Positions 6,505 through 28,022 of a stretch of 64,000 nucleotides of DNA are shown here, piece after piece. The position numbers and the translations under genes were made by a program. How positions within the stretch are numbered: the first letter of the stretch is position 1; each line of letters opens with the position of its first letter. Origin of the DNA: Eledone cirrhosa (lineage: Eukaryota); NCBI GenBank assembly GCA_964016885.1, contig OZ024753.1, positions 9,176,001-9,240,000 on the forward strand. The letters run 5' to 3'. The notes beneath the pieces were generated by a model that saw only the letters and a list, made by a program, of their open reading frames with translations, had not been told where the DNA came from and made no database searches.

Positions 6505-7850
6505 TTGTGAAGACAAACAAACACAGATGTGCTGGCCACATCTGGAGACTCAGTGACAACAGATGTGCTGGTCACATCTGGAGACTCAGTGACAATAGAT
6601 GTGCTGGCCACATCTCGCAACTCAGTGACAACAGATGGGCTGGCCACATCTGGAGACTCAGTGACAAAAGATGTGCTGGCCACAACTTACAACTCGGTGA
6701 CAACAGATGTGTTGGTCACATCTGGAGACTCAGTGACAACAGATGAGCTGGTCACATATCACAACTCAGTGACAATAGATGTGCTGGCCACATCTCACGA
6801 CTCAGTCACAACAGATGGGCTGGCCACATCTCACGACTCAGTCACAACAGATGGGCTGGCCACATCTCACGACTCAGTCACAACAGATGGGCTGGCCACA
6901 TCTCATGACTCAGTCACAACAGATGGGCTGGCCACATCTCACGACTCAGTCACAACAGATGGGCTGGCCACATCTCACGACTCAGTGACAACAGATGTGC
7001 TGGCCACATCTCACGACTCAGTCACAACAGATGGGCTGGCCACATCTCATGACTCAGTCACAACAGATGGGCTGGCCACATCTCACGACTCAGTCACAAC
7101 AGATGGGCTGGCCACATCTCACGACTCAGTGACAACAGATGTGCTGGCCACATCTCACGACTCAGTCACAACAGATGGGCTGGCCACATCTCATGACTCA
7201 GTCACAACAGATGGGCTGGCCACATCTGGAGACTCAGTCATAACAGATGGGCTGGCCACATCTCACGACTCAGTGACAACAGATGGGCTGGCCACATCAG
7301 GAGACTCAGTGACAACAGATGTGCTGGCCACATCTCATGACTCAGTCACAACAGATGGGCTGGCCACATCTCATGACTTAGTCACAACAGATGGGCTGGC
7401 CACATCTGGAGACTCAGTCATAACAGATGGGCTGGCCACATCTCACAACTCAGTGACTACAGATGGGCTGGCCACATCTCACGACTCAGTGACTACAGAT
7501 GGGCTGGCCACATCTCACAACTCAGTGACTACAGATGGGCTGGCCACATCTCACAACTCAGTGACTACAGATGGGCTGGCCACATCTCACAACTCAGTGA
7601 CTACAGATGGGCTGGCCACATCTCACGACTCAGTGACAACAGATGGGCTGGCCACATCTCACGACTCAGTGACTACAGGTGGATGATAAGAGTGACAGAG
7701 AGGACACCAAGAAAATGGACATGATCAAAAGGATGTCCAAGGACGAGGTGGCAAGATGACCTTACCAACCACCAGGGACCCTCATGGCCAAGACTGGCAA
7801 AGAACAGAAGTCAATGGAAGGAGTTCAGAGAGAGGTTCCTCTTCTGTGAG
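6505..7850 (+). mobile_element. RTE-clade LINE 3' fragment with internal 36-bp tandem expansion
   Basis: One frame reads VKTNKH-(RWAGHISRLSDN)n-RWMIRVTERTPRKWT*SKGCPRTRWQDDLTNHQGPSWPRLAKNRSQWKEFRERF, matching the RTE ORF C-terminal pattern WAGHIxRxxDxRW..RPxTRWxDD..A.DR..W. Confidence 0.85.
6523..7683 (+). repeat. 36-bp minisatellite, 32 units
   Basis: Unit ACAGATGGGCTGGCCACATCTCACGACTCAGTGACA; source of the 385-aa TTDGLATSHDSV ORF. Confidence 0.97.
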
Positions 7851-8460
7851 TGATTTCAAGATCCTGGGTCAAGAAGATCAAGTAAATTTGGTAAATTTCT
7901 ATATCCATAGACTACAACTGAAGAGTTGCACAATAACCCAGTTAAAAAAAAAGTAATAATTTCCACAAAGTTTTCTAAGTAGTTTATTGTTACATGTAAC
8001 TGTTAGTGTGGGTTGTTTAAGATAAAAAGTAAGTTTAACTTGTAGCGACCCCTAGGGTAAAAAAAAGAGAATTAATTAGAGTTACTTCCCGTAGGCATAA
8101 TAAATAGACGAGACTTGTGTTTCTCACTCTCTTATTCACTGCCGGCCTCATTCTGACGAGCAGCTCTCTATACTCTTGCGACTACTTCGGAATTGAACAC
8201 TATATGTACAGAGCATATCACCTCTATCTTGCATGCCCGGATATCTATATCTTCTTTCTTATTGAATTAATGGTTGGTTACCAGCGGTATCTTCCGGAGA
8301 AGATTAAACCAATAAACCAATACACTAAAAACTCATCAGGGAGATCATAAGGGTTTTCACCCTGTTTTATAAGCTATTTTATAGCATGTGCATGAGCACA
8401 GTACCATTTATATAAATATATATATACTAGCAAGGAAAGTGGATGCTAAATGATGATAAT

Positions 8461-8502
<42 letters not shown>

Positions 8503-8676
8503 GTTGCTGTGCTGATAAGCGTTTTGGCATTGATACACTGGTTGGATGCCCTTTCTAAACCCAGTGCCACTTTACAGCATGGACTGGGTGCTTTTATTTG
8601 TGCCGCCAGCACTAGAGAGGATGTCTTACTAGATTCAAGGGCCCTCTCTACCCCTCCATTTTACAGCATGGTCATA

Positions 8677-8730
<54 letters not shown>

Positions 8731-9039
8731 TGTAAATCGAAATTTAGCTGCAGTACAGCAAGTAGTATTCAATTAATTTGAGGCAATCACAAAGCACTCA
8801 ATGGATCAGAAGTTCAAAATAAACATTAAGTCTAGAGTTAAACACCGTAGTTATAAAGTGTGACATCAAGAGAACTGACCGAAGGCACAAACTATACATA
8901 CAACAAAATACGATAGATACAAAAAGGCTTTTCATACCTAGACCTGATTAAAATTGATATAATCAATAAAATCTCTGATAGGTTTCTGGAACTCGAGGAA
9001 GTTATATAACAAGTTATGTAATACACAAGTAATACATAT

Positions 9040-9359
9040 AATTGTTTCTTTGGACAAGGCCAGCAATTACTCAGTACATTACTGGTACTTTATTTTCTCG
9101 ACCCCGTAAGGATGAAAGGCAAAGTAAACCTCGGCGGGATTTGAACTCAGACCGTAAAGGGACGTAACTATGCTGGAAAGCATGGCGTCCGACTCTCTAC
9201 CGATACTGCCAATCCACCACCCTTCCAATACATATACATATAATTGTTTCTACTTTTGGCACAAAGCCAGCAATTATCCCAGTGTATTACTGGTACTTTA
9301 TTTTATCGACCCCATAAGGATGAAAGGCAAAGTTAACCTCGGCGGGATTTGAACTCAGA
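9040..9359 (-). mobile_element. Two adjacent family A SINEs (tRNA head plus Nin/Deu-like core), the second 5'-truncated
   Basis: Minus strand: TGGCAGTATCGG A box, GAGTTCAAATCC B box, GCCGAGGTTAACTTTGCCTTTCATCCTTACGGGGTCGATAAAATAAAGTACCAG core; AATACATATACATATAAT repeated around the second copy. Confidence 0.9.
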
Positions 9360-9529
9360 ATACATATACATATAATACATTCCACACAGGTGGCAAATTG
9401 ACAGAGTCGTTAGAACATTGGATAGAATGCTTTGTAGATAATACATGTGTAGACAACGAAACCAGTCTACCATCCAAAGATCTCACAACACAAACCCAAA
9501 GATCTGGAGATGGTGTTAAACTAGACAAC

Positions 9530-10165
9530 AGATCTCCTCCTCTGCTGGCCTCAGCCGAAATCGACTCAACAATTGATCTCCACATGCGTCTGTCGTTCAT
9601 TGCCATTGCCAAATCCTGGATATTTCAATACCAGAATCTCTGGAGATGACATCGGGATAGGAGAGCTTGCACCCCCTGTTATTAGTGACTGCTTGTGGTT
9701 TCCAAAGCACTAACGGGGACACAACCTCATAGGTGGCACGATGGCAGTGGCCAGCAAATCGGGATAGGAGAGCTTGTGCCCCCTGTTATTAGTGACTGCT
9801 TGTGGTTTCCAAAGCACTAACGGGGACACAACCTCATAGGTGGCACGATGGCAGTGGCCAGCAAATCGGGATAGGAGAGCTTGTGTCCCCTGTTATTACT
9901 GACTGCTTGTGGTTTCCAAAGCACTAACGGGGACACAACCTCATAGGTGGCACGATGGCAGTGGCCAGCAAATCGGGATAGGAGAGCTTGTGTCCCCTGT
10001 TATTAGTGACTGCTTGTGGTTTCCAAAGCACTAACGGGGACACAGCCTCATCGGTGGCACGATGGCAGTGGCCAGCAAATCTTACTCTCCTTTTACGTAC
10101 AACAACAGATATGCGTGGGAGGTCGGCACTTGTATCCAGCTATTGAAAAAATGGACTATTCATTG
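9530..10165 (-). mobile_element. RTE/RTEX-clade LINE 3' fragment with internal 107-bp tandem expansion
   Basis: Minus strand reads DLPRISVVVRKRRVR-FAGHCHRATYEVVSPLVLWKPQAVTNNRGHKLSYPD-VISRDSG..(frameshift)QDLAMAMNDRRMWRSIV. Confidence 0.85.
9651..10081. repeat. 107-bp tandem repeat, 4 units
   Basis: ATC junction recurs at 9651, 9758, 9865, 9972 and 10079. Confidence 0.97.
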
Positions 10166-11163
10166 ATTTGAACCAGAGTTCAAGCCCCTGCCTGAGCTGA
10201 TTTTCCTGAAACTCACACCTCAAGCTCTGAGACTAATGACAGATCAGACTTCAACCTGGACTCATCTAGGGAGACTTCCCGATAGAGCAGAAGGCAGATC
10301 AAAACCTCTCCTAAAGAGTAAACAACAGATTTAGTCTACCATCCAAAGAACGCATAACACAAAAAAATGGCACAAATACTTCAAGACATTTCATCTGACA
10401 TTCTAACAACTCTACCACTCCACTATCCTAGAATGGTTCTTTATTTTATTCATATTGAAAGTTGTGATTCAAATTTAGAATGTAGAGAACCAGAACAAAT
10501 AGGGAAAGAGATTTTCTTCTCAACTCTAATAACTCTGTCAATTTGTTGACTATAGAATTTGTTAGATTATCACCAAAGTAACAGAATTTTTTTCAACACA
10601 CTGACATGTATGTGTATATGTGTGTGTATGTGTGTGTATGTGTGTTTGTACATATACAAACATTTATATGTATGAGGATATAAATATAATATAAACGTGC
10701 AAACACAGACACAATTACAAAATACACACTCACAGGCATACATTCACACAAATACACACACATACATTCACACAAACACACACACATTTACATTCACACA
10801 AACACACACATACATACATTCACACAAACACACACATACATTCGCACAAACATATACTCACACACAGCGTAGCAAATGGAACACCAGCTGCTGTTTTGCT
10901 TTAGTTTTTTTCAGCATTCCCTTCATTCCTTTTACACACACATATATTCTCACAAACACGCATACAATGCGAGACGGACGGAAGTCGCTCAAATGTATAT
11001 ATAGATTCATTTATATTGAAACAGGTTTTGATACCTGTTTAATAATTACTGGTGGGAAGCTTAGTTTATTTAATTTCTAAAATATATATAATTTTACTAT
11101 GAAATTGATTTCATAGATATTTTTAAAAACTGGAATTAAGAAGAAAGCAGAATTGAAAATATC

Positions 11164-11312
11164 TTTGCGCCCTAGGCCCAGAACCCAATCATCCTCTCCC
11201 TTCTGTGACCCAAGAGCTCTTACCATTCCCTCCCCTTACCCTTTTTTCTTTCTTTTTCTCTTTTTTCTCTATATTTTTTTCTCTACATGATATATTCCAT
11301 AAATAAAATAAT
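11164..11312 (+). mobile_element. 3' UTR remnant of the CRE-like LINE family
   Basis: GCGCCCTAGGCCCAGAACCCAATC..CTGTGAC..CCATTCCC and ACATGATATATTCCATAAATAAA match 46667-46860 and 40430-40500. Confidence 0.6.
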
Positions 11313-12822
11313 TTAAAAATGGAATTAAAATCCAAAATAAGGTATCATTTATCCCTTAAAAAATAACTTATTGAAATTTAAACCAGTTCATAAATGTTTT
11401 TTTTTGCTTTTTTTAAATTAAATGGATTTGAATTTCACAACTTTAATTCAATTTTGGTTTATAAAAATGTAGTTTTATCAGATCCGAATTTTAAGCTAAA
11501 TTTTAAAAAAAATTGAATTGGAAATTCTATCTGTGAATTAATTTTAATTCTAATTAAAACAGATAATTGAATCAAATTAATTAACAAAATAATCTTACAT
11601 TTCACCCCTAAAAAGGCATAGAAGCCACAGAACTTTATTATTTTTACCTAATATTTGTATCAACTTATCGCAGTAATAAAGAATATGTTCAATCATATGT
11701 GATTATTATTGATGATATTTGCCTGGTTTGCATCTAAAATATGATTTAATTGTGTTTCGTATCAGGGGTCTTTGTCACGTTTCACTAACAATTGTTTCGT
11801 TTTATTTTTTTAACACTCCACAGGAAACTGCTGCTAACATTATCGCCATCAGAATAATTCCAAAAGAAAAATAAATGCCATTATGTGAAACAGTTGAAAT
11901 CAGTTTGAATAAACCGGGCTGATAAGACCAAGGTCAATCGCATGATGCAACAAAAGCCTATTTTAAATGATTACAGAGTTCAATAGGGTTCTTTTGCAAG
12001 AATAAATAAAATGTAAAAAAACAAAAAAAAAAACAAAGAGAAAAAAATTAATTCTGTAGAAATTATTGAAATTGAGTCCATTCAGTATTTAATGAAATTC
12101 AGAAATTCAAGAAGTGTTGCAAAAGCTTCCATTTTATGTTGACAGAAAACTATAATCCCCATGCACATTGTCATGAAGAAGCTAAATATTTTAAAAGAAT
12201 ATCAAAACACCCATTTCCAATCATTTGGTGTTAAAAGGTTAACAAAATGAATTTAATTCTATTTTCTAAATGTTAGCTGCTTCTTTAGAAATTTAGCTTA
12301 TGAGAAAATTTGAGATTTGTAATTTGTTTTCTCACAAGAATTTGTTTTCTTTTCTTTTCATGTTAAGAATGTGCTGGGTAGTTCTGTAAAACAAATTTAG
12401 AAGTAGTAATTTATATTGTTAGATGAAAATATTTCTGAAAGGGGATCCCCCTTTTTAACCCCTTTGTGGCAATCTTTGTAATGTTTATGTGTTTCAATTA
12501 ATTTTGAAAATAACCACAAATTGGGAGGAATTTAGTATAAGCAATCTCGGGATTATTAAACTGGTGTTTCAAATGTAATTAACTAAAAAGAGTTTGATTT
12601 TTATTTTAATTGAAATTGCTTTAAAGTGGGCAGTTTTGAACCATAGAACAAAAGGCAGTTTCGTACAGGCTGGTATCAAGAAAGTAAAATATAAACAGCT
12701 TACTTCATAAATGAGACTGACAATTATTTTATCAACAGAGACTAAAGAAAACAGGATAATATGCCTAACAGTACAGTATAGTTGGCTGTAGCAGAAATTA
12801 AACATGTCAATTATAGTGAGTA

Positions 12823-13350
12823 CAGTGTTGGACTAAATAAACTAGAACATAGAGTCACACACACTCAGGGGCCTCATTTTGTCAAATATATTTTCAGTTT
12901 ATCATTAGTTTTTATTCTTTAACACTAAATCATAAAAAAATTATGTGGTCAAGAAAAAACAATTTAACCGAATAACAAATGTTTTGATGATTCAACACAG
13001 AGAAAGCGAGCTTTGCTAAACATCAATTTTCTTCTTCTTCATTGCTCACTTATTCCTGAGAGAGTCGTAGGGATGGAGTCCTCAAACACTCCTTCCAGTG
13101 GGTCCTGTCAGAAGCAACCATCTCCAACTGGATCCCCAAGCAAGACCAACCAAGCTCATGGACGTTATCCAACCATCTTGCTTCAGGTCTATCCCTGGGT
13201 CTCCTGCTGATTGGTTTTGCCCATAAATTCATTCCTGAGACATTCCAACCATATTATTTATTAATATGAAATATAATAATTATATTCTTTTCGACAAGGG
13301 CCTCAAATTTCATATGGTTTTGGGCCTCAGAAGTTAAAAGTCCAGCACTG
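12823..13350. mobile_element. hAT-like MITE containing an RTE fragment
   Basis: TIRs CAGTGTTGGACT / AGTCCAGCACTG; 8-bp TSD AGTGAGTA / AGTGAGCA. Confidence 0.75.
13028..13250 (-). mobile_element. RTE-clade LINE 3' end
   Basis: RRPRDRPEARWLDNV..VASDRTHWKECL followed by a (GAA)n tail. Confidence 0.75.
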
Positions 13351-13606
13351 AGTGAGCAACATAGTTCTCTCTCTCTCTCTCACTGCACACACACCACACA
13401 CAAACTCACTTATATATGCATGCACATATACATGCACACAAACACATACACAAACATATATGAAACTGGATTTCTGTTGATATGGAATATGAGAAAACTA
13501 ATAAGAGGAAATGATGTCTTCTCAGAAAGCCTACACACAACACCCACACAAGAATCACCAATCTTTATCCTCCTCCTTTCCCCCACCTATCTCTCTCTTT
13601 CTCTCT

Positions 13607-13673
<67 letters not shown>

Positions 13674-13725
13674 TACACGCCCATCTAAGAATATTGAAGA
13701 ATCACCAATCTTCATCCCCCCTTTG

Positions 13726-13820
<95 letters not shown>

Positions 13821-14312
13821 AACTGAGAGTTACCCAATCAAAGTTCTCCAAAGCAGACACGTGCACACACAAATACTCTCACACACACATACACACACAC
13901 GTGCACAAAAACATACACACACACGCGCACACACACACACACACACACTCTCTAAGAATATTGAGATTGATTAAATATCTAATGTAAGTTACTAATAAAC
14001 CAGCGTTAGATTCTTCTTAATAAACATTTCTACATTTTTTGTTTTGTTGTTTTTATCTTATTTTCTTTATTTAATTTGCCGACATGTCAACAAGAAAGTT
14101 CCTTCCTCATCCCTCCACTCTAAAATCGTTCCAAGTTCACCAACTACAACTTTAGATTGAAAGGTGTTAAAAGTAATGTGTAGAATGAAAGACCTACGAG
14201 AAGGAGGGTGAAATAAAAACATCAAACATCGGCCAAAAGACTCCAAGATCAGACAAAAACTAATCCAGAAAGTTGAAGGTAAAATATTATTATTTGCAAT
14301 CACCTTCTTAAT

Positions 14313-14502
14313 TAATTGTTTCTACTTTAGGCACAAGGCCAGCAATTACCCAGTACATTACTGGTACTTTATTTTTTATCAACCCCATAAGGATGAAAGG
14401 CAAAGTTAACCTCGGCGTGTTTTGAACTCAGACTGTAAAGGGACGTAACTATGCTAGAAAGCATGGCGTCCAACCCTCTACCGATACTGCCAATTCACCG
14501 CC
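14313..14502 (-). mobile_element. Family A SINE
   Basis: Full consensus; TCACCTTCTTAATTAAT direct repeat on both sides (TSD-like). Confidence 0.9.
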
Positions 14503-14845
14503 CGTTACTTAGTCACCTTCTTAATTAATGATGCTGTTTTATAGTAACTTCAATATGAAGCAGTTTAACTCTCAAGTCAAATTGTATTTGATTTATTATT
14601 ACTTATAGACATGGCTCTGTGGTTCAAACGATTTCCTCATAATCATTGCAGGTATATGGCCTAGTGGTAAGTGTGTTGGACTTAGATCGTAGAACCATGA
14701 ACAGTATGTAAAGCAGGCTTCCACACAGGTTTCATAAGCCAAATTTCACACACAAAGCTTTGGTTGACCTGAGGCTAAAATAGAAGATATGCACTGAAGC
14801 GGATGTGTAGTAAGATTGAACATGGAGCCATGTACGTGTGTTGTG

Positions 14846-15080
14846 GAGGCATGTGGCTTAGTGGTAAGGGTGTTGGACTTACGATCATAATGTCATGGGT
14901 TTGATTCCTGGGCTGTATTGCATGTTGTGTTCTTGAGAAAAACACTTCATTTCACATTGCCCACTGAAAATTAGTACAAGCAATACCTGGGAGTTTAACC
15001 CAGTGATGGACTGGTGTCCCATCCAGGGAGTAGTCTTGTACTCTTAGTCGCTTCATGCCACAAAACTGGGATAAGCTCTG
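14846..15080 (+). mobile_element. Older tRNA-derived SINE (family B-like head)
   Basis: GGAGGCATGTGGCTTAGTGGTAAG head, GGTTTGATTCC, TGTGTTCTTGAGAAAAACACTT core. Confidence 0.7.
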
Positions 15081-15555
15081 GCTAAAACATGCATGTGTAT
15101 TTCAGACACAATGACAGTTATGGAAGAACACATCAATTATCTGTTTTGTTTTGAACGATTTCTACTTCACTTTGAAAAGAGAATATTAATCCTGAAATAC
15201 CATATTGAAATATACTGGGTAAAACATTACTTTGTTTTGTTTTATTTGTCATCCTTTTCTCTTTATATATTTCTACCGCATTGTATCAGCTTTTTGAAAC
15301 TTATCGGCATTTTATCTCCAAAAATAATAAATAATTTTAGGAAAACCTTCAAAATGTCTAATGAATTAATGGAGTGTTTTATTAAAAACATGGTTATTGA
15401 AAGGATTAAAGAGGGGAATACAACAAAAAGTACTGGAAAATGAATAAACAAAAAATAAAATAAAAATAATAAATAAATAAAATATATATACAAACAATGT
15501 ATGTAGCCGAGAAATCAGGCTTTGAAGTGCTGAGAATAAAGACTGAATGTAAAGA

Positions 15556-15741
15556 ATGGTGTGCTCATGCACAGAGATGCTACAAAATAGTTTATAAAAT
15601 AGGGTGAATACCCTTGAAAGATGGGAAAAAAAGTTGCTATTGGTTGCTATCAGGTCAATGGCAACTTCTTTTTCCATTATTAAGGCTCTTCACCTCATTT
15701 TATAAGCTATTTTATAACATCTTTGTGCATAAGCACACTAT
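15556..15741. repeat. Diverged inverted repeat, 53-bp arms
   Basis: 15556-15608 is reverse-complementary to 15689-15741; a related arm occurs near 8357-8405. Confidence 0.8.
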
Positions 15742-15871
15742 CCTTTGAAGGGAAGGAGAAAGTCAATTAAATGTACCCCAGTGTATTACTGGTACTTTAT
15801 TTTATCGATCTTGTAAGGATGAAAAGCAAAGGGTTTGAACTCAGAATGTAAAGAGATGTAACTATATACAG

Positions 15872-16090
15872 CAGGCATGTCAAACATACGGCCCACGGGC
15901 CACATGCAGCCCTTTACAAGCAACCTGTGGCCCACACAAAGGTTTTTACAGCACGAGCATGTTTTGTCTTCGTAATATAAGATAAAAAAAAATTAGTTGT
16001 AATGTGCACAATTAGTTGTCATGTGTGACCCTCAGACAACACTTATGTGACCCATGTGGCCCTCTGGGGACCCTCAGTTTGACATGCCTG
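15872..16090. mobile_element. hAT MITE inserted into an old family A SINE
   Basis: 14-bp TIR CAGGCATGTCAAAC / GTTTGACATGCCTG; TSD ATATACAG / ATATAATG; second copy at 26406-26641. Confidence 0.88.
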
Positions 16091-16219
16091 ATATAATGCA
16101 AACAAGATGCCCAACACTCTACCAATTACTAAGAATCCCAGAATAATAAGAGATGACAGTTATTCTGATTTAAGAAAGGAAAATATTATTTATCAAAACT
16201 GAATTTAAGGCATTCTATA

Positions 16220-16408
16220 TAATAATAATAACGAAAATATTGTGTACAGTGCTCAGGTGCACTACAGCTCATCAAAAGTGTATGTATAGTACATAGGGTA
16301 ATGTACAAACGTCAGGAAAATGAACAGTGCATGAGTCATGATATACACATGTGTGCAAGTGTATGGAAGGGGGACATCAGGTGTAGTTTTGGCGAATTTC
16401 GGGAAGCG
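16220..16408 (-). mobile_element. CR1-clade LINE 3' UTR fragment
   Basis: Reverse complement of 61785-61970 (GTAGTGCACCTGAGCACT..ACACAATA plus (ATT)n tail). Confidence 0.85.
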
Positions 16409-17439
16409 AGTAGTTACTTTCAGTTTTAATTAATCTACTTGACACTAATGATAATTTTGAATTAAATCTAAAATGTAATTTGGTTTAAAAACACCTAAAG
16501 TTTATAACTCTCTTATTTCAATGATTCTTAAATTTCTATACTGAAATTTATAAATCAATATATAGAGATAAGTACACATAGAGATATGTGTTAAATCATA
16601 GGGGATCAAAAACCACCAGAGTAACAAACATATTAACTACGGAAGGAATGGTGAATATAAATCAATAAAAAGAATATATTAAAGTGTACTAACCATCCAA
16701 TTATAACAATGAAGTTTTCTAAATAGTTATAAGTCTATATATATATATATCATATATAACTTAGTCTTAATAACAAAATTTTAATTAATTTGCTTTCATA
16801 CAAAAGAGCAGGATTGTATATATTGTGTTAAAAAAAGAAAAATGTTTGAAATTTAATTTCTTTTTTTCTTCTTCTTAATTCTGATAATGTTTTGGCAAAG
16901 AAAAGATAATATAGGAAGTAAGTCTAATAGTTATAAATACGCTTAAATAAAACAATTTTTTTTCTTTATATAAATCATAGGATGAGAAAGAAAAATGTTT
17001 TATATTGAATTTCTTAAAACATTTCTAAATTCCCTCAAGAAAAGTCAGTTCTTAAGTGAAAGGTTTCAAACAGACTAAAACAAACTATTTTTTTATCTTC
17101 TGCTTCTTTGATTCCTTCCCATTCTTTGATAAAATTAAATTCTGAAGTATTTTCAAAGACTGCTTGACAGATGTTTAAAGATTTTTTAAAAAATTAGACA
17201 GACAAAATATTCTAATTGATTTTGTTAATTAATGTACTACAACACCAGACTGATCACATTTATTGTCATTATAAATGTGGTTTACTAACAGATAGGATAA
17301 ATTCTCCAAAGAGATGTTGCTTAAGTATCAACAGCAACATAGAATTGATAAATGTGTCCAAACACAGACAAACCAAACTCCCACTGTCATCGCCTCCATC
17401 TCTCTCGCCCTCCCCATCTCTCTGTATTATGAGCAAATG

Positions 17440-17650: not shown

Positions 17651-17834
17651 ATAAATTGTTGAATTAACATTGCTTTATAGTATTAACATTTGTCTATGGA
17701 CCTCTTTACTTTCAGTTCCTCCCATAAAATATGTACCCCACCCCACCCTACCCCACAAACACACATAATTATCCCGGGGTTGATTTAACTACTGGCATTA
17801 CACATTTGTGAGAAATCGTTATTAGGATGTACTA

Positions 17835-18010: not shown

Positions 18011-18180
18011 GTAAATCTTCAATTTGGTATTTGTGCCAACCCTTACTTATGGCCATGAATCTTGGGTAATGACAAAAATCAAAATATTAACAAGAGAATG
18101 GGATAGAATAAAAATATATCATCATCATCATCGATTAATGTCCATCTTCCATGCTAGCATGGGTTAGATGGGAAAGGAAA

Positions 18181-18299
18181 TGCTTACAGCACCTAGGTTT
18201 CCCAAACGGTCACCCATCTAAGTACTAACTAGGCTCGATGTTGCTTAACTTTGGTGATCGGATGAGAACTGGTGTTTTCAGCGTGATATGACCATGGAC
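18181..18299 (-). pseudogene. Full-length 5S rRNA pseudogene
   Basis: Minus strand GTCCATGGTCATATCACGCTGAAAACACCAGTTCTCATCCGATCACCAAAGTTAAGCAACATCGAGCCTAGTTAGTACTTAGATGGGTGACCGTTTGGGAAACCTAGGTGCTGTAAGCA is colinear with metazoan 5S; many differences look like CpG decay. Confidence 0.92.
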
Positions 18300-18427
18300 A
18301 TTAAACAGTGATGATGATGATGATGATATATATATATCATCATCATCATCGTTTAACGTCCATCTTCCACGCTAGCATGTGTGTGTGTATATATATATAT
18401 GTGTATATGTGTATATATATATGTGTG

Positions 18428-18489
<62 letters not shown>

Positions 18490-19258
18490 TACATACAAAT
18501 GTATAAATGTGTGAGCAGTTTATGGTAATATGTGAACTCATAACCCTTGTGGTTATTGTGTTATGGTTCTTCAATTTTGGACATTGTGAAGACGAAATAC
18601 AACAAAAAGGCTAAACCAGGAATCAAACTTGTATTGCTCTCTTAAATATCCACAATTTTACCACTGTTGTAAGTAGAGACCCTCACCGACACACACAGAG
18701 ACACCAACAGAGACACACACACAGAGACACACCCTCACAGACACAGGGACACCCATAGAGACACACCCACCCACAGAGACAACGACATGCGCAGACACAT
18801 TTATAAGGAATATTTGTTAGAAAACAACAACAAAGTAGCAACATATACAAAACAATTCTCATTAAATAGATAGGTAAATCAAATTCTGACGGAATAAATT
18901 ATCGTATTCAGTCAGTCAAAATAAATATTCAATGAAAATGGAAAATGTTATATTATTTATGATTCTGAAAATAACCCTTAAAAAAAATAAATAAATAAAT
19001 AATAAAAGGAGAAAATGACCATTATACAATTTACGATTTTATAGCCAATTGGCACCACACAAGGAAAAACACAACTTCCTGCAATCAGATCTGGGAGATT
19101 AAGGTGTATGTGTGACCTTTCTCAAATAATGGTTCAAGTCATGCTATAAAAGCTAGCCAGTTCTTTAGAGATTTTGTTGAAGTAGTCAGTTGTATCTCAT
19201 GTAGTAAGTGTATTATAAGTTAGGTAAGATATATGCCAAGATATATGTATGTAGACAT

Positions 19259-19600
19259 GGAGGCACATGGCTTAGTGGTTAGAGCATTGGCCTTGCAATC
19301 GAAAGATTGTGAGTTCAATTCTCAGACCAGGTGATGTGTTGTTTCCTTGAGCAAGACACTTTATTTCACATTGCTCCAGTTTACTCAGCTGTAGAAATGA
19401 GATGATAGGGACTGGGGTCCCTATCATTCCACTGCAAAGTGGTCGTGTAGGTGCCACGGCAAAAAAGCACCCAGCACTCACTGTAAATGAGGTTGGTGTT
19501 AGGAAGGGCATCCAGCTGTAGAAATCAAGCCAGCATCAGTTCCCGTCCTACCCTTGCAAGCAGGGAAAAGCGGACGTAAAATGATGATGATGATGATGAT
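19259..19600 (+). mobile_element. Full-length family B SINE (tRNA head, V/Meta-like core, RTE-type tail)
   Basis: TGGCTTAGTGG A box, GAGTTCAATTC B box, TCCTTGAGCAAGACACTT core, tail CCCTTGCAAGCAGGGAAAAGCGGACGTAAAA(TGA)n; GACATGGA TSD. Confidence 0.92.
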
Positions 19601-21440
19601 GACATGGATGTAGTAGTATCTCATGTAGTATACCATGTAGCCAATGTATTATAAGTTAGGTAAGATATATTCCAAGATATATGTATGTAGACATGGCTGT
19701 AGTAGTATCTCATGTAGTATACCATGTAGCCAATGTATTATAAGTTAGGTAAGATATATGCCAAGATATATGTATGTAGACATGGCTGTAGTAGTATCTC
19801 ATGTAGTATACCATGTAGCCAATGTATTATAAGTTAGGTAAGATATATGCCAAGATATATGTATGTAGACATGGCTGTAGTAGTATCTCATGTAGTGTAC
19901 CATGTAGCCAATGTATTATAAGTTAGGTAAGATATATGCCAAGATATATGTATGTAGACATGGCTGTAGTAGTATCTCATGTAGTGTACCATGTAGCCAA
20001 TGTATTATAAGTTAGGTAAGATATATGCCAAGATATATGTATGTAGACATGGCTGTAGTAGTATCTCATGTAGTGTACCATGTAGCCAATGTATTATAAG
20101 TTAGGTAAGATATATGTATGTAAACATGACTGTAGTAGTATCTCTTGTAGTATCCCACATGTAGTCAATGTATTATAAGTTAGCCAAGATATATGTATGT
20201 AGACATGGATGTAGTCAATGTATTATCCCATGTAGTTTACCATGTAGCCAATGTATTATATGTTAGCCAAGATATATGTATGTAGACATGGCTGTAGTAG
20301 TATCTCATGTAGTGTACCATGTAGCCAATGTATTATAAGTTAGGTAAGATATATGTATGTAGACATGGCTGTAGTAGCATCTCATGTAGCCAATGTATTA
20401 TAAGTTAGACAAGATATATGTATGTAGATATGGCTGAAGTATTATCCCATGTAGTGTACCATGTAGTCAATGTAATATAAGTTAGACAAGATATATGTAT
20501 GTAGACATGGATGTAGTAGTCAGTATTAACCCATGTAGTATCCCACATGTAGTCAATGTAATATAAGTTAGACAAGATATATGTATGTAGACATGGATGT
20601 AGTAGTCAGTATTAACCCATGTAGTATCCCACATGTAGTCAATGTAATATAAGTTAGACAAGATATATGTATGTAGACATGGATGTAGTAGTCAGTATTA
20701 ACCCATGTAGTATCCCACATGTAGTTAATGTAATATAAGTTAGACAAGATATATGTATGTAGACATGGATGTAGTAGTCAGTATTAACCCATGTAGTATC
20801 CCACATGTAGTCAATGTAATATAAGTTAGACAAGATATATGTATGTAGACATGGATGTAGTAGTCAGTATTATCCCACATGTAGCCAATGTAATATAAGT
20901 TAGACAAGATATATGTATGTAGACATGGATGTAGTAGTCAGTATTATCCCATGTAGTATCCCACATGTAGTCAATGTAATATAAGTTAGACAAGATATAT
21001 GTATGTAGACATGGATGTAGTAGTCAGTATTATCCCATGTAGTATCCCACATGTAGTCAATGTAATATAAGTTAGACAAGATATATGTATGTAGACATGG
21101 ATGTAGTAGTCAGTATTATCCCATGTAGTATCCCACATGTAGTCAATGTAATATAAGTTAGACAAGATATATGTATGTAGACATGGATGTAGTAGTCAGT
21201 ATTATCCCATGTAGTATCCCACATGTAGTCAATGTAATATAAGTTAGACAAGATATATGTATGTAGACATGGATGTAGTAGTCAGTATTATCCCATGTAG
21301 TATCCCACATGTAGTCAATGTAATATAAGTTAGACAAGATATATGTATGTAGACATGGATGTAGTAGTCAGTATTATCCCATGTAGTATCCCACATGTAG
21401 TCAATGTAATATAAGTTAGACAAGATATATGTATGTAGGC
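19601..21440. repeat. Minisatellite grading from 89-bp to 86-bp units
   Basis: AGACATGG recurs at 19689, 19778, 19867 (89 bp) and at 20589, 20675 onwards (86 bp); an orphan unit lies at 19180-19260, left of the SINE. Confidence 0.95.
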
Positions 21441-22487
21441 ATAGCTCAGTTCAATCGTATTCTGGTATTTTGCACAAGTATATTTACCATAGTCTTTACC
21501 AAAGTTTATTACCCTTTATTTCAGTACACTAAGCTGAGAGTGAATAATACCAGCAGTAGCTGGGGAGTAAATCCTGCAATAGACCAGCATCCTGTCCAGG
21601 GAGAGTCTTGTACTCTCAGTTGCTAAACACGGAGGGAATTTAATACCTTTTATCAACTGTTAGATGAACTAAGACAATGTATAAAAAAATGTCCTTCTTA
21701 GAAACACAGTGTAAGGTTTACAGTGTGTAAGCAATGGAAGACTTCATGAAATTTAACCAAGAAAATCAAATACTTTCTGTTGCTGCATGAAGAGTAAATT
21801 GTATTTTGAACATTTACAACAAAATATGAATACAATTTTAAAAACGAGAAAATCACGATATAAATATGATAATAAACAAGCAAGATTACCCAGCATTGTC
21901 TGTGTTTATTAAAACTTTCAGTAAAAAATTCTGAGACTATCCTGATGTTATGATACAAGATTGCTCATTTTTAAAATGTTCATAATTATATTATATAAAA
22001 CCTTCCGCTGTAATTTTATTTTAGAAATTTTTGTTAAGTAATCTTCTAAATATCTGCTTAGTTACTTTATTAAAAACTTAGTAATTTTATTAAAGTTCTC
22101 CAAAACGTTGGTTATTTTCAAAGTTAATTGGAATACATATGCAGTATATTTCATTGAAAATGCAGCAATGAAAGAATTAATGCATAAAATATTTACAATC
22201 TGATTAATTTTGGATAAAGTGGGTTTTAAAAGTTGTTAACAAACTTTGGTTGGTCTTGGAATGCTGTTTCATTCAAAATTATTGCCTCCAAGCAATTTTG
22301 AATCATGAAAATATGCAAAACACACATATCCATTTAGACATATGCACATATGCACAGACACACAGACACACACACACACACATATATATATATATGTAGA
22401 AGTTCTATTTAAATTGTTGTGATACAACAAGCAAATATTTTTATAACTGATATAAAGCACTTGACAAATTATTGGAGTAAAAATACG

Positions 22488-22777
22488 ATATTAACAAATG
22501 GAAACTATATTTATAAAACCATATTTATTTCATTATACATATTTCAAGGACACCAAGTTAAGTTATGGTGTGCTTTCATCAGATAAAATATAATATAGAG
22601 CAGTTTTATAAATAAATATTGACATACCCTTAAAGAATGCGACCATTTCTGTTGGAAGCTCCTGCTCTATATTATATTTTATCTGATGAAAGCACACCAT
22701 AACTTAACTTGGTGTCCTTGAAATATGTATAATGAAATAAATATGGTTTTATAAATATAGTTTCCATTTGTTAATAT
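22488..22777. repeat. Perfect inverted repeat, 116-bp arms, 58-bp spacer
   Basis: 22488-22603 is the reverse complement of 22662-22777. Confidence 0.95.
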
Positions 22778-22797
22778 ATTGTATATATATATATATA

Positions 22798-23269
22798 TTG
22801 ATCTTCACCATAATATTTTGACTAAATAATTGTTTCTACTTTTGGCACAAGGCCAGCAATTACCCAGTGCATTACTGGTACTTTATTTTATCGACCCCGT
22901 AAGGGTGAAAGGCAAAGTTAACCTCAGCGGGATTTGAACTCAGAATGGCAAGGGCCGTAACTCTATGCATCAAAGCATGGCATCCAACCCTCTACCGACA
23001 CTGCCAATCCCCCCAGTCTAATAATGGGGTATATAAACCCACGGGAAAAGGATGGGTATTGGCAGTATCGATAGAAAGTCGGGTGCCATGCTTTGACGCA
23101 TAGAGTTATGGCCCTTGCCATTCTGAGTTCAAATCCCGCCGAGGTTAACTTTGCCGTTCATCCTTATGGGGTCGATAAAATAAAGTACCAGTAATGCACT
23201 GGGTCATTGCTGGCCTTGTGCCAAAAGTAGAAACAATTATTTAATCAAAATATTACGCTGAAGCTTCAA
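22798..23269. mobile_element. Head-to-head pair of family A SINEs sharing about 30 bp of 3' flank
   Basis: Minus copy 22827-23010, plus copy 23055-23240; flank TTGATCTTCACCATAATATTTTGACTAAAT mirrors ATTTAATCAAAATATTACGCTGAAGCTTCAA. Confidence 0.9.
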
Positions 23270-23316
23270 TTTCTATTTCAATTCCAAACTTTGCTTGCCG
23301 CATCTCAAACATGCTT

Positions 23317-23364
<48 letters not shown>

Positions 23365-23367
<3 letters not shown>

Positions 23368-23502
23368 CAAAGAGGGTGTGGTAGGATACCAGGTGGATTA
23401 TAATACACTAGAGTACTCAATACTTAGGGTAGTAGAGTGGGTAATAGAAGAAGAGTTGGAAACAGCTGGAGCTCAGCCATCGTGGTCCTGACTCTTCTCC
23501 TA
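23365..23502. mobile_element. (TA)n-flanked element related to 30780-30990; putative Penelope-like terminal repeat
   Basis: AGTACTCAATACTTAGGGTAGTAGAGTGGGTAATAG and GAAACAGCTGGAGCTCAGCC segments are shared with the 30.8-kb copy. Confidence 0.55.
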
Positions 23503-23544
23503 TATATATTTTTTTTATTTTTTTATTTACATAATAAAGAAAAC

Positions 23545-23616
23545 AATATAATTATTTCATTACCTAAGGTTTCGAGAAAATAGATGATTCTTCGACAGAC
23601 AAAATAATTATATTTT
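23545..23616 (-). ncRNA. Degenerate type I minimal hammerhead ribozyme motif
   Basis: 16-bp stem I AATATAATTATTTTGT / ATGAAATAATTATATT, core CTGTCGA (A6 mutated), stem II AGAA/TTCT, GAAAC-CTTAG-GTA. Confidence 0.55.
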
Positions 23617-23720
23617 TCAGTAATTAAATATCTCTGTACATATCTCATAGAGCAGTCTTCGTTCCTTTACCTTTTCTAACAGAAAAACTTAACAAATAAC
23701 ACACACATATAGAGAGAGAG

Positions 23721-23751
<31 letters not shown>

Positions 23752-23790
23752 GTTATAGGAATAACCAAAGAGTGCTTAGAAATACATTGT

Positions 23791-23849
23791 TTTATTAGCT
23801 AACAGTGTTTCATCCATGCCTCATGGCAGGAATCATCAGAGCCTATAAA
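23791..23849 (-). ncRNA. Type I minimal hammerhead ribozyme motif (Penelope type)
   Basis: TTTATAGGCT-CTGATGA-tTCCTGCCatgaGGCAtGGAt-GAAAC-act-GTT-AGCTAATAAA; stem I pairs 9/10. Confidence 0.68.
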
Positions 23850-23967
23850 CAAGAGTATATCAATAGTTGCATGCTCCATTGAGCTGCATCACCAGAATTG
23901 AGCTAAAACCACACTGTCACACCAAGGGCAATATATTTGTCAACGAAACTATATCTATATCTATATA

Positions 23968-24310
23968 TATCATCATCATTTCATTTTACGTCCGCTTTTT
24001 CCCTGCTTGCAAGGATGGGACGGGAACTGATGCTGGCTTGATTTCTACAGCTGGATGCCCTTCCTAACACCAACCTCATTTACAGTGAGTGCTGGGTGCT
24101 TTTTTTGCCATGGTACCTCCACGACCACTTTGCAGTGGAATGATTTGGACCCCAGTCCCTATCATCTCATTTCTACAGCTGAGTAAACTGGAGCAATGTG
24201 AAATAAAGTGTCTTGCTCAAGGAAACAACACATCACCCGGTCTGAGAATTGAACTCACAACCTTTCGATTGCAAGGCCAATGCTCTAACCACTAAGCCAT
24301 GTGCTTCCAC
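23968..24310 (-). mobile_element. Full-length family B SINE
   Basis: Reverse complement of 19259-19600 including the (TGA)n tail. Confidence 0.92.
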
Positions 24311-24423
24311 ATATATATATAAACAAATAGTAGAAAGGAAAAAGTTTTTTTTTCCTGTAGAAAATGTTGAAGAGATATTTTTAGTGAAATTTGAACGCAT
24401 TAATTTATTTACAATACCCTCAA

Positions 24424-24531
24424 CTCCCGCCGAGGTTAACTTTGCCTTTCATCCTTACGGGGTCGATAAAATAAAGTACCAGTAATGCACTGGGTAATTG
24501 CTGGCCTTGTGCCAAAAGTAGAAACAATTAT
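24424..24531 (+). mobile_element. 5'-truncated family A SINE
   Basis: Core and tail match the consensus from CCCGCCGAGGTTAAC. Confidence 0.88.
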
Positions 24532-24788
24532 TTTATTTACAATACCAGTTTCAGCATTAAATGCATTATCAATTGTGGATATGCAGAATATTGTTAAGTT
24601 GCATATTTGTACAGGTAGTGAAGCTAATGATAATAACGAAAAAAGAAAATAAGAGATTAAGGCTCTCCCTACATACATTACCCTGGCTACACCTTATGGA
24701 GTCTAATTTAAGGCCCTATATCAGATTGACTAGTCCCTTCGATATATTACTTTTCCTACCGTTTATGGAGGCTTATATTATATTAGTG

Positions 24789-24945
24789 AAGGCGTGTGGC
24801 TGAGTGGTTAGAGAATTGGATTGGCAATCATAAGGTTGTGAGTTCGATTCCTGGACCAGGCGATGCGTTATGTCCTTGAGCAAGACACTTTATTTCACGT
24901 TGCTCCTTCTACCTGGAGTTGCGACCGATAGATAGTATTAGCAAT
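24789..24945 (+). mobile_element. Family B-head SINE subfamily (same as 59246-59402)
   Basis: tRNA head, TGTCCTTGAGCAAGACACTTTATTTCA, then CTCCTTCT..GGAGTTG..TAGATAGTAT.AGCAA. Confidence 0.8.
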
Positions 24946-25897
24946 TGGAAAGACCAACGGAAACATTGTTCCCTTGGTCCAATTTGACGAAAGTCGATCG
25001 TTCCTACATATTATACCACTGACACAAGGAAGATCATCGTGTGAGATTTAAGGCCCTATATCAGATTGTCTAGACCCCTAAATATATGACGTTTGCTACA
25101 GCTTATGGAGGCTGATCTCTGTATCAGATAAAAACAGTCAACAATATGCTTAGCCTCAGAGATGATCTGACAGAAGAGCAAGGTAGGTCAATGACAATAT
25201 GATGTAGAACAGCTTCAAGCAAATCAAAACCAATGAAATACAAATGTTAAAATAGCAACAACAACAATAATAATGATGATAATAACAGTGGTGATGATGA
25301 TGATGATGATGATGATGATTTCACAATTGGAACTTTTTTCATCAAAGATATTGAATATTACTTTTATTTTTTTCTATCTTTATAAAATTGTGACAACTCT
25401 TACCACTCTTTTACTCTTACATTTCAATAATAAAAGATCTTACAAAAAAATATATATTTGTATTCATGAATCTCCTTACAAAAATATGCTTTATATCTTC
25501 AAGCTTGAGAAATATATCTTTAATATATCTTTCATTCTTTCTTTAGCTCACCTTTGGCTCATATAGAAATCATATTGACTAACGATTTCAATGGCAAAGC
25601 TGAAAAACTAACACTGGAATCTGAGTTGTTTTCTCCAAGTTCATGGAAGGTCTTAAGTTCAAAAATAAAAACTAACAAAATACTTGTGATAAAAGCAACT
25701 GCACGAGAGGTGAACCCTGACGGCCTGAAACCATAAAACTGTTGCTTTTCTCACTTAGAACCAAATGGATCTATATCAGTTTCAAAAAAGAATATTCCAG
25801 TTATTTCTTCTGCTGAACTACTAAAAGTTTAGAATAAATGGTTGAGTATTTCACAGGCATGTGTACTTTTGACTTACAGTATATACTGAATATATAA

Positions 25898-26282
25898 AGC
25901 ACCTAGCCCACACTGTTAATGTGGTTGGTGTTCGGAAGGACATCCAGCCGTAGGAAATCAGCCCAAAAGCACCCAGCTCATACTGTAAAGTGGACGTGTA
26001 AAAGACGAGGCAAAAAGCACCCAGCACACACGCTCAATGTGGTTGGCATTAGGAAGGGCATCCAGCTGTAGAAAACCAGCCCACACTGTAAAGTAGATGT
26101 GTAAAAGACACGGCAAAAATCACACAGCACACACCGTCAATGTGGTTGGCATTAGGAAGGACATCCAGCTACATTTCTATATGAGCGAGGCATGGTCACC
26201 CGACACAACTTGCCTCTAAATGGGGAAAACCCATCTAAGCCATGATAGCATGGATGATAGATGTTAAGCGATGATGATTATG
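25898..26282 (+). mobile_element. Headless family B SINE 3' region with reiterated sub-repeats and RTE-type tail
   Basis: Three GTGGTTGG..GGAAGG.CATCCAGC blocks, AAAAGCACCCAG..CACTGTAAAG units, tail CCATGATAGCATGGA..GATGTTAAGCGATGATGA. Confidence 0.75.
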
Positions 26283-26405
26283 AAGATACTTGAATATAAG
26301 CAGATCCAAATATAAGCTGACCCCTTCTATTCTATATCTAACAAATAGGAGAAAATCCAAACCATATTTATAAACTGAAGTAGCTTATTAACACATAGTT
26401 TAGAT

Positions 26406-26641
26406 CAGGCATGTCAAACATGAGGCCTGTGGGTCACATGACCTTTACAAGCAACCTGCGGCCCACACAAAGATTTTTACAACACGAGCATGTTTTATCT
26501 TTGCAATATAAAATAAAAAAATATTAGTTGTAATGTGAGCAATTAGTTGTCAAGTGTGGACCTCAGACAACACATGTGTGATCCATGTGGCCCTCAGGTG
26601 ACCCATGTGGCCCTCAGGGGACCCTCAATTTGACATACCTG
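26406..26641. mobile_element. hAT MITE, second copy
   Basis: TIR CAGGCATGTCAAAC / ATTTGACATACCTG; TSD GTTTAGAT / GTTTAAAT. Confidence 0.88.
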
Positions 26642-27239
26642 GTTTAAATGGTCTATATAAGCCACAGCCCGCCATTTTACCATCGATGCTTTTTCTCACA
26701 TATTCTTTGGCTTATATTCAAGAATATATGATGATCTGAAAGCAGAATCAGCAGTGTGTGGCAAAGCTAGACCCTTGAATAACAGATAAAACCTCTGACG
26801 GGCTCCTACACTACTTCTGTCTACCTAATTTCTGTCACATGACTAGAGTTGAGCAGAAGCTATGGTAAAGGACGTATAGTTAAAATGACATGCAGTGGGT
26901 TTGAACTCAAAATGTCATGAAACTATCTGATCAAATGTAGCCCTAATATAGTTAGGGCAAGTATGAGCATCACAAAATCTACTTGAAACATTGGGACATA
27001 ACTAATATCTTGCTTACTTGCTTATAACAACAGTTTGTGTGTGTAGCTGTCTACATGTAACTGTGTGTGATTAGTAATGTATCCGACTATGTGTGTGTGT
27101 TTGCGTGTGTAGCTGTATGAATGGGGTTGTGTGGATTTGTGAATATGTGACTGTGTGTGTGTGTAAGCATATATACAGTTAGTGGAGGGTGAAGCAAACA
27201 AATACATACATGGGTGAGTGAAAGCAAAGAAATATATAC

Positions 27240-28022
27240 GAAAGGCTGGTTGTATGATGCTGATGCGCAACGCTGCATGGTAGTGAGACATGGGCAACAA
27301 CTGCAGAGGATATGCGACAGCTGGAGAGAAATGAAGCAAGCATGCTCCGTTGGATGTGCAATGTCAATGTGCGTGAACGACCAAGCATAGACGAGTTGAG
27401 AGAGAACCTGTGTATAAGAGGGATAGGCTGTAGTGTGTGGGAGAGAAGACTGCGTGATGGTATGGACATGTGATGCGCATGGAGGATGACCGCTGGGTAA
27501 ATAAGTGCCAAGAAATCCCAGTAGAAGGAAGATGGTATGGACATGTGATGCGCATGGAGGATGACCGCTGGGTGAAGAAGTGCCAAGAACTCCCAGTAGA
27601 AGGAAGATGGTATGGACATGTGATGCGTATGGAGGATGACCGTTGGGTAAAGAAGTGCCAAGAACTCCCAGTAGAAGGAAGATGGTATGGACATGTGATG
27701 CGTATGGAGGATGACCGTTGGGTAAAGAAGTGCCAAGAACTCCCAGTAGAAGGAAGATGGTATGGACATGTGATGCGTATGGAGGATGACCGCTGGGTGA
27801 AGAAGTGCCAAGAAATCCCAGTAGAAGGAAGACGCAGTAGAGGAAGACCACGAAAAACATGGACGGAGGTGGTGAGAGCTGACTTCAGATTGCTGAAACT
27901 CACCGAGGAGATGACGAAGGACTGGGACAAGTGGAGAAATGCTGTGCTTAATAAGACCCATCCCACCCTTGCAAGCAGGAAAAAGTGGACGTAAAATGAT
28001 GATGATGATGATGATGATGATG
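27240..28022 (+). mobile_element. RTE LINE 3' fragment with internal 75-bp tandem expansion
   Basis: LHGSETWATTAEDMRQLERNEASMLRWMC..ERRL-(RWYGHVMRMEDDRWVKKCQELPVEG)x5-RRSRGRPRKTWTEVVRADF..DWDKWRNAV, then a (GAT)n tail. Confidence 0.93.
27456..27832 (+). repeat. 75-bp in-frame tandem repeat, 5 units
   Basis: GATGG at 27456, 27531, 27606, 27681 and 27756. Confidence 0.97.

Follow-up and report, generated by a model that had tools for sequence, protein, structure and literature searches.

Minisatellites derived from transposable elements have been surveyed in the human genome, where Ahmed & Liang (2012; PMC3389668) described hotspots within AluS and LTR12 and cited the Alu minisatellites of Jurka & Gentles. 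In the part of that paper used here, the authors suggest a trigger during retrotransposition followed by slow expansion, note that regions of an element can be hotspots, and report that known models explain ~6% of transposon-derived repeats. The arrays described below are similar in that an internal retroposon segment is tandemly repeated and some arrays lie between short direct repeats. They differ in that their units consist of RTE coding sequence and in that some of them make up the 5′ terminus of the insert and open with an incomplete unit.

RTE-generated microsatellites (PMC2887409) also resemble this locus, with abundant 3′ partial elements that comprise the C-terminal coding end, and RT slippage at insertion was proposed there to lengthen the repeats. 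However, those repeats are 1–6 nt long and lie in the 3′ UTR tail, whereas the units here measure 36–107 nt and belong to the ORF. Template jumping by non-LTR reverse transcriptases (L1 ORF2p, PMC10830420; models in PMC2912911) is a route to concatemers with microhomology junctions, and rearrangement at R1 and R2 5′ junctions (PMC2718515) is a route to duplications at that junction. In the parts of these three papers that were consulted, the jumps land on another template or on target DNA; recopying of one internal segment does not appear there, and no RTE enzyme is involved.

The preliminary description of this DNA proposed a retroelement-encoded route to minisatellites that its author did not know from published work. 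Transposon-derived minisatellites and hotspots within elements are, however, in print (PMC3389668, as far as the portion used here goes). A literature search, mostly at title level and covering few subscription journals, found no title on arrays at the RTE WxGH motif or on reiterated LINE segments at the 5′ terminus.

Three host copies and their arrays

An RTE-clade element has a single ORF that encodes an APE endonuclease and a reverse transcriptase (RT). Its C-terminus carries [WF]xGH and then a GRP-type motif, without a Cys-His knuckle. The three hosts in the window, which is the whole 64,000-nt stretch analysed, show this C-terminal arrangement, and the knuckle is absent; WxGH itself is present in 141 of the 150 best profile matches. 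All three arrays lie inside dead, 5′-truncated RTE-like copies. The window has no RT domain, and the hosts are 3′ fragments, for which Pfam returned no family in five of five fragments searched; longer relatives with both domains are P0005 (PF03372 and PF00078) and P0167 (PF03372/PF14529 and PF00078), neither tied directly to host 1. The arrays consist of head-to-tail units of >20 bp with at least one period overlapping a transposon, which is how transposon-derived minisatellites are delimited in the consulted part of PMC3389668. TRF agrees with the preliminary description on the places and unit lengths of all three (36, 107 and 75 bp), and the translations given there were also correct.

Host 1 (6508..7879, plus strand) is an RTE 3′ end of the WAGH type, delimited by tblastn, by its target-site duplication (TSD) and by relatives P0007–P0012. 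The left TSD (6497..6507, plus strand) is 11 nt long and is repeated exactly on the right (7880..7890, plus strand), a match length equalled in 2 of 300 random zone pairs. The 3′ part of the host is 56% identical to P0076 (tblastn against the window, E 9e-21), and a stop interrupts the ORF remnant at 7722. Array 1 (6523..7682, plus strand) has 32 units of 36 bp (TRF: 32.2 copies, 91%), each running between the motif's own Arg-Trp and the Arg-Trp dipeptide after it. Eleven variant types are common to several of its units and occur in blocks. A tandem-protein query retrieved six relatives, P0007–P0012, all with a single motif.

Host 2 (9541..10127, minus strand; ends approximate) is an RTE-like 3′ end of the FAGHC type, identified by tblastn to P0163–P0167 and 67–77% identical to P0163/P0164, segment by segment. 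PF00078 is present in its relatives P0164 and P0166. Array 2 (9651..10081, minus strand; 107 bp × 4; TRF: 4.0 copies, 97%) is out of frame, and the host has a frameshift near 9621–9624. The 3-nt word GAT is common to both native ends of the array; five variants are private to one unit and one is shared.

Host 3 (27238..28022, plus strand; 5′ end approximate) is one copy of an RTE family with (GAT)n tails that is very abundant: ~11,000 contigs and 190,000 reads per run match 27200–27532. It is 73–76% identical to P0001 both upstream and downstream of array 3 (27456..27832, plus strand), which comprises five 75-bp units plus 2 nt (TRF: 5.0 copies, 97%) with one private and four shared variants. 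The first junction is frameshifted and holds two extra bases without counterpart in paralogs (27454..27457, plus strand), these being either the first or the last two of the four (40 vs 39 contigs in X1). A short 3′ UTR with a microsatellite tail is clear in host 3, where TRF finds nine ATG/GAT repeats at 27996..28022 (plus strand); in hosts 1 and 2, short degenerate repeats close the element within ~30 nt of the end of the ORF. A clear TSD is absent for hosts 2 and 3.

The preliminary description placed each array within the rest of an RTE C-terminus. All flanks do match EN/RT-type LINE C-termini, but the full C-terminus flanks only array 3, with ~220 nt of host upstream, because just 15 nt of element precede array 1 and ~40–46 nt precede array 2. 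Selection for a repeat protein was considered and rejected on the grounds of the stops in array 1, the loss of frame in array 2 and the frameshift at the first junction in host 3. Another candidate, units of array 3 drawn from different source RNAs, was set aside as too weak; by our own count four of its five variants fall at third codon positions.

We give almost no credence to the arrays being assembly artefacts. They were read from the assembly alone, and the window junction 27530->27456 is absent from the 15 joints listed out of 69 for the host 3 family, but ordered distinct unit variants (18 of 32 units distinct in array 1, all four in array 2, four of five in array 3) and the TSD around host 1 argue for real sequence.

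Array starts at the motif

In all three arrays the start lies at most 5 nt from the W/F codon of [WF]xGH. Relative to this codon the junction windows are approximately −5..−1 for array 1, −2..+1 for array 2 and −2..0 for array 3, and the exact words over which they slide are ACAG, GAT and GA, respectively. The trio was chosen among 19 complex arrays. Given a motif in each unit, a uniform null puts all three starts at the Arg codon with a probability of ~0.012, uncorrected for the many windows scanned.

This shared start favors a model in which the RTE RT, on pausing or running off at the Arg-[WF]xGH codons, primes again downstream time after time, the exact site being a conserved hotspot. Several other observations point the same way. 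An array of another RTE family in metagenome contigs (L044) has its restart at −4..0 and its end at +74..+78, close to those of array 3 (−2..0 and +72), and a further one (L027) resumes at −8..−5. The three foreign arrays with at least 3.5 copies begin a short way upstream of the motif, with p=0.011 in a post hoc test and p=0.128 when the cut-off is lowered to ≥2.5 copies. Among the listed joints of the host 3 family that go back, the one with most read support, 27475->27458 (331 and 488 reads, two starts), resumes at the W codon, although it is ambiguous: the letters between are undefined and 8 of 10 listed skip joints resume at the same place. L1 RT template jumping gives concatemers in vitro, according to the part of PMC10830420 used here.

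Independent duplications nevertheless argue against a fixed site. The metagenome sample began with 21 loci and was reduced to 12 events by dropping four without an RTE match (L029–L031, L041), merging four pairs and setting aside L043, an inversion with no tandem unit; L034 and L036 were retained on motif context despite no protein match at E 1e-4. The starts of these 12 motif-containing duplications are spread uniformly across the range open to them (KS p=0.98, mean relative position 0.50), and 2 of 12 extend into −5..0 where the expectation is 2.96, in a small sample with start ranges set by eye, WAGH motifs only and 36–96 nt spacing. The conserved single-codon hotspot thus failed an independent test, albeit a small one, and is not supported. 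The sample is silent on the motif region versus other element parts as the site of arrays.

Defined junctions of the host 3 family also fall elsewhere: tandem junctions in its reads resume at −65/−63/−61, −134 and −168 relative to the motif, and the best-supported listed one with both ends defined resumes 61–65 nt upstream. Summed contig depth, a rough measure, is alike on either side of the motif (X1: 1.37M at 27332–43, 1.28M at 27476–87). No truncation pile-up at the motif is among those listed, the sole start or end pile-up listed being a RAD cut site. Folding of the RNA around the motif, a check suggested in the preliminary description, gave no notable or shared structure, with no 60-nt window over the motif start having z below −1. 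In proteins, the best 150 of 34,973 profile matches include no array starting at the motif, a weak null, since such a search sees nothing but in-frame predicted proteins. Twelve of these 150 kept at least two stretches on rescoring, by eye mostly long or chimeric duplications; in the single clearly array-like case, P0066, the repeated segment lies upstream of the motif. Pattern scans of genome contigs (23 loci) and viral contigs (2 loci) gave single matches, taken from the listing as chance. Scans for array-free baseline RTE loci gave one in genome contigs and none in two scans of viral contigs. The array-free fragment at 13028..13250 (minus strand), offered earlier as a comparison, begins downstream of the motif and is no valid control because it is weakly RTE-like (blastx best E 5e-4 against 167 proteins) and lacks the motif; the same holds for 18015–18089. 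On balance an exact pause site at the Arg codon is improbable.

As an alternative, the earlier proposal named re-nicking at GAT, the tail repeat of one family here; the element endonuclease would then cut again at this word and prime further copying there. GAT is indeed seen at all three window junctions. An 81-bp junction of the host 3 family ends in GATG, and the T that paralogs have at 27392 would give GAT at its other end as well; tail repeats have been proposed as guides of RTE cleavage (PMC13295347, in the portion used here). However, GAT at the junctions is no second coincidence because it is imposed by the codons, Arg (NGA) followed by the T of TGG or TTT. The native ends of array 3 share GA only, GAT occurs 0.9–4.4 times per 100 nt in the hosts, a GAT tail is present in host 3 only, and by our own reading GAT is the junction microhomology in 0 of 12 foreign duplications. 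We therefore consider re-nicking very improbable.

The motif region would be favored only broadly, with no sharp hotspot. The motif lies a few hundred nt from the tail, which is also where short RTE inserts end. A Lys/Arg patch precedes the motif in 123 of 141 representatives and a second Arg-Trp follows it in 99 of 141, and these supply purine-rich and Arg-Trp matches nearby.

Insertion and later turnover

Some arrays likely form at the moment of element insertion. Array 1 is near-terminal, starting 15 nt inside a TSD-bounded insert, with shared variants. Among the 12 foreign duplications, L027, L028, L044 and probably L039 are 5′-terminal (3–4 of 12; P 0.002–0.02 with an assumed per-event chance of 0.05). 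Private and shared variants number 17 and 5 in L044, 5 and 0 in L027, and 9 and 1 in L039. A 5′-terminal position within a TSD, a partial first unit and private variants are found together in L027, which also shows an extra jump, with 9 extra nt matching +222 inside the TSD. L044 has all of these features, the partial first unit included, except the TSD, and its contig ends before the tail. Array 3 is internal to host 3. The role for integration proposed earlier has partial support, from array 1 and the 3–4 foreign cases at the insert 5′ end, although a source RNA that already bore an array may also account for such cases; for each array we infer both seed timing and polymerase.

Replication slippage or unequal exchange after insertion could have seeded and expanded all three arrays with no retrotransposon enzyme. 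The window is rich in repeats, with 19 complex arrays making up 23.3% of it, and other retroposon parts are amplified at 1–5120, 48787–49574, 57283–58393, 59487–60534 and 63795–63999. The 112-bp array at 57283–58393 appears, by our own reading, to cover a SINE end together with the DNA beside it, which speaks for a DNA-level route. Array 3 is internal with shared variants, array 2 is out of frame, and duplication flanked by direct repeats is an established model (PMC3389668, in the part used here). This process leaves unexplained the 5′-terminal arrays whose first unit is partial (L027, L044) and the 9 nt of L027 matching +222 inside the TSD, unless the source RNA already bore an array. We judge it possible but unlikely as the whole account.

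Our preferred reading, with a probability of about one half, is that these are RTE-derived minisatellites in which template switches made the seeds, some of them at integration, and DNA turnover followed, the shared Arg-codon start being mostly chance. Each seed would stem from a switch of template at short matching words, and integration is the likely occasion where the array is close to the insert 5′ end (array 1, perhaps array 2). Later growth would be ordinary DNA-level turnover, as suggested by the shared variant types in blocks in array 1 and the four of five variants shared in array 3. The common start would then likely reflect chance, aided by matches that the codons impose, and not a fixed pause site.

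A bolder version, which we consider decidedly doubtful, is that the RTE RT writes a whole minisatellite per insertion by recopying 35–110 nt of its own RNA, mostly around the basic patch above WxGH. Such recopying could proceed by repeated jumps or on a small RNA circle just before the RT quits, and its products would be L027, L044 and array 1.

The origin of minisatellites is an open question. Without a link to integration, the arrays would be commonplace repeats of transposon origin in a genome rich in repeats. If RTE enzymes do lay multi-copy arrays at the insert 5′ end, this would be a testable birth mechanism, whose signature would be TSD-bounded arrays with a partial first unit and private variants. 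If true, RTE recopying would make a LINE a reiterative polymerase, seeding arrays across animal genomes.

Array junctions and host elements

All three tandem arrays of the preliminary description are borne out, together with their translations. Array 1 (6523-7682) holds 32.2 copies of a 36-bp unit, array 2 (9651-10081, minus strand) 4.0 copies of a 107-bp unit, and array 3 (27456-27832) 5.0 copies of a 75-bp unit. In a six-frame scan of the window, [WF]xGH in RTE context is confined to these arrays, so the window holds no array-free copy of the motif as a control. The 5'-truncated copies carrying them (hosts 1, 2 and 3) are assigned to RTE on C-terminal likeness and on relatives with EN and RT. 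All are dead fragments, each with a stop or frameshift. Host 1 resembles WAGH-type C-termini. An 11-nt target-site duplication encloses it (6497-6507 and 7880-7890; as long in 2 of 300 controls), so that 15 nt of element sequence remain above array 1. Host 2 matches the stored relatives P0163-P0167, with homology beginning about 40-46 nt above array 2. Short duplicated words flank it at 9466-9540 and 10320-10355, the left one separated from the element by about 190 nt of non-RTE DNA; they are possibly a rearranged target site. Host 3 ends in a (GAT)n tail, and its match to P0001 is 76% on the upstream side of the array and 73% on the downstream side. Its family is very abundant (in each run some 11,000 contigs, or 190,000 reads, align to one 333-nt stretch). 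A further short RTE fragment without an array, from the YGxExW region, lies at 18015-18089 (plus strand) and is absent from the preliminary description.

The exact words common to both array ends are ACAG in array 1, GAT in array 2 and GA in array 3. A start at Arg and a GAT at the junction are one fact, because GAT results wherever an NGA Arg codon precedes TGG or TTT. GAT stands as the common word of array 2, and the native 3' end of array 3 continues GAC. The first junction of array 3 has 2 extra nucleotides, absent from paralogs. With them the sequence at 27451-27457 directly repeats a 7-nt word lying 81 nt upstream (27370-27376), which may be chance. The unit of array 1 spans the stretch from one Arg-Trp dipeptide to the next. 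Of 141 representatives, 99 have a second Arg-Trp after WxGH, and 123 have at least two Lys/Arg among the five residues preceding W. Given the motif within each unit, the chance of three starts at the Arg codon is about 0.012, a figure uncorrected for the choice of three among 19 arrays and for how many windows were scanned.

Start positions in other genomes and in the host 3 family

The proposed exact-site hotspot at the Arg codon did not pass the independent tests, which are small. A search for paired WAGH-coding motifs spaced 36-96 nt apart gave 21 metagenome loci, reduced to 12 events by dropping four without an RTE match, merging four pairs and setting aside the inversion L043; L034 and L036 were retained despite having no protein match. 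Read by eye from diagonals and counted from the W codon, the starts lie at -13 to -10, -8 to -5, -38, -21, -12 to -11, -13 to -7, -32, -29 to -27, -13 to -12, -17, -4 to 0 and -26 to -20. Expressed as fractions of the allowed range they are spread uniformly (mean 0.50, KS p=0.98, n=12), and two of 12 reach -5 to 0, against 2.96 expected; the test takes the motif as given and is silent on the motif region versus the rest of the element. Two observations count against a no-hotspot reading. The ends of L044 (78 bp, 7.6 copies) nearly coincide with those of array 3. In addition, the three metagenome arrays with at least 3.5 copies begin near the motif (p=0.011 for this cut-off, which was set post hoc; p=0.128 with a cut-off of 2.5 copies; p=0.07 in a rank test on scaled position). 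In L043 (1192-1300, oriented) an RTE 5' end carries sense, antisense and sense pieces at most 40 nt from the motif, which we read as two template switches at one junction.

For the host 3 family, reads and contigs were placed on 27200-27532 at 80% likeness, and 15 of 69 joints are listed. Among those listed, go-back joints (returning upstream) with both ends defined resume away from the Arg codon, at -65, -63 and -61, giving 79-82 nt units that end at +16/+17; the main form occurs in 3 and 6 contigs and in all four runs. This paralog junction (27393-27475) ends just past WYGH, has summed contig depth far above that of single contigs, and could represent a long array, or a subfamily, at another place in the genome. 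Another listed go-back joint, with one start and seen in both RAD runs, resumes at -168 and has the +72 end of array 3; a further defined one resumes at -134. In two listed joints the sides are separated by unknown letters. The one with more support (331 and 488 reads) picks up at the W codon and could be a motif-start array, but its +17 end is that of the 81-nt class, and eight of the ten skip joints (forward jumps) listed likewise resume at the W codon, because the host 3 copy has a 2-nt insertion. Summed contig depth, a rough measure, dips around the motif but reaches similar values 120 nt upstream of it and 20 nt downstream; among the pile-ups of molecule ends listed for family reads and contigs, the RAD cut site is the only one. 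There is thus no sign that RT often arrests at the motif. Folding the RNA around the motif, as had been suggested, gave no unusually folding 60-nt window over the motif start in the hosts tested. Among the top 150 profile matches no protein repeats from the motif, and P0066 repeats a segment upstream of it.

Other retroposon-derived arrays in the window

Complex arrays number 19 and make up 23.3% of the window, and several come from other retroposon parts. The array at 1-5120 (48 bp, at least 107 copies, running off the window) repeats, in diverged form, the 48-bp unit of (GAT)n-tailed short elements. It aligns with retroposon units at 48349-48454 and 63795-63999, and is likely a 5-kb satellite grown from a retroposon 3' region. 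At 48787-49574 a 216-bp SINE is repeated 3.7 times head to tail, a 5'-truncated first copy preceding three apparently whole ones, each with an (ATT)n tail; serial template jumps would fit, and so would double insertion with unequal exchange. The 112-bp unit at 57283-58393 appears to take in a SINE end and its flank, which points to DNA-level duplication. Arrays at 59487-60534 and 63795-63999 derive from other retroposon parts. A full-length 5S rRNA copy (18181-18299, minus strand, Rfam 90.4 bits) lies between (GAT)n-tailed retroposon 3'-end pieces (about 18122-18172 and 18300-18330) and looks like a template-switch chimera or a 5S-derived SINE. At 19260-19602 a tRNA-headed, (GAT)n-tailed element has inserted near one end of the 86/89-bp array at 19180-21442, with what appears to be a target duplication of 8 nt.

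Proposed seeding and turnover, and a possible link to integration

The arrays are best classed as transposon-derived minisatellites that, we suggest, arose through short template switches and then grew by DNA turnover; we put the probability at about one half. Variants common to several units in array 1 (11 shared, 9 private) and array 3 (4 shared, 1 private) argue for turnover after array birth. In array 2 variants are mostly private (5 private, 1 shared). Transposon-derived minisatellites, hotspots inside elements, and a suggested retrotransposition trigger are published for human elements (PMC3389668; review PMC9659126). RTE tails are known to give rise to microsatellites, and the elements leave numerous short 3' copies (PMC2887409). 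For L1 ORF2p, template jumping has been shown to yield concatemers (PMC10830420), and 5'-junction models and rearrangements are described (PMC2912911, PMC2718515). An RTE-BovB expansion in cephalopods (PMC10294476) and recent RTE activity (PMC13282606) are also noted. Literature searches of partial coverage listed no account of arrays at the WxGH motif of RTE elements, nor of LINE segments reiterated at the 5' terminus.

Some metagenome loci show signs of array birth at integration. L027 has a 16-nt target-site duplication with one mismatch, then 9 nt matching +222, a partial unit and three full units. L044 begins mid-unit without element sequence above, the array of L039 probably starts at the insert 5' end, and the duplication in L028 starts in its target-site duplication and takes in target DNA. 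Private and shared variants number 17 and 5 in L044, 5 and 0 in L027, and 9 and 1 in L039. Unit divergence (5.2%, 2.5%) is of the same order as that of the rest of the insert (1.9%, 5.1%), a noisy comparison. Three to four terminal cases among 12 give P of 0.02-0.002 if the per-event chance is assumed to be 0.05. Such a terminal, partial-unit pattern would be expected if the enzyme had rounded the segment several times and stopped mid-round. The same picture would result from truncation within an array that the source RNA carried beforehand. In the window, array 1 fits the integration pattern by position, array 2 loosely and array 3 not at all. The lead that deserves pursuit is reiterative copying coupled to integration, at the 5' end of RTE inserts; its strong form seems to us unlikely.
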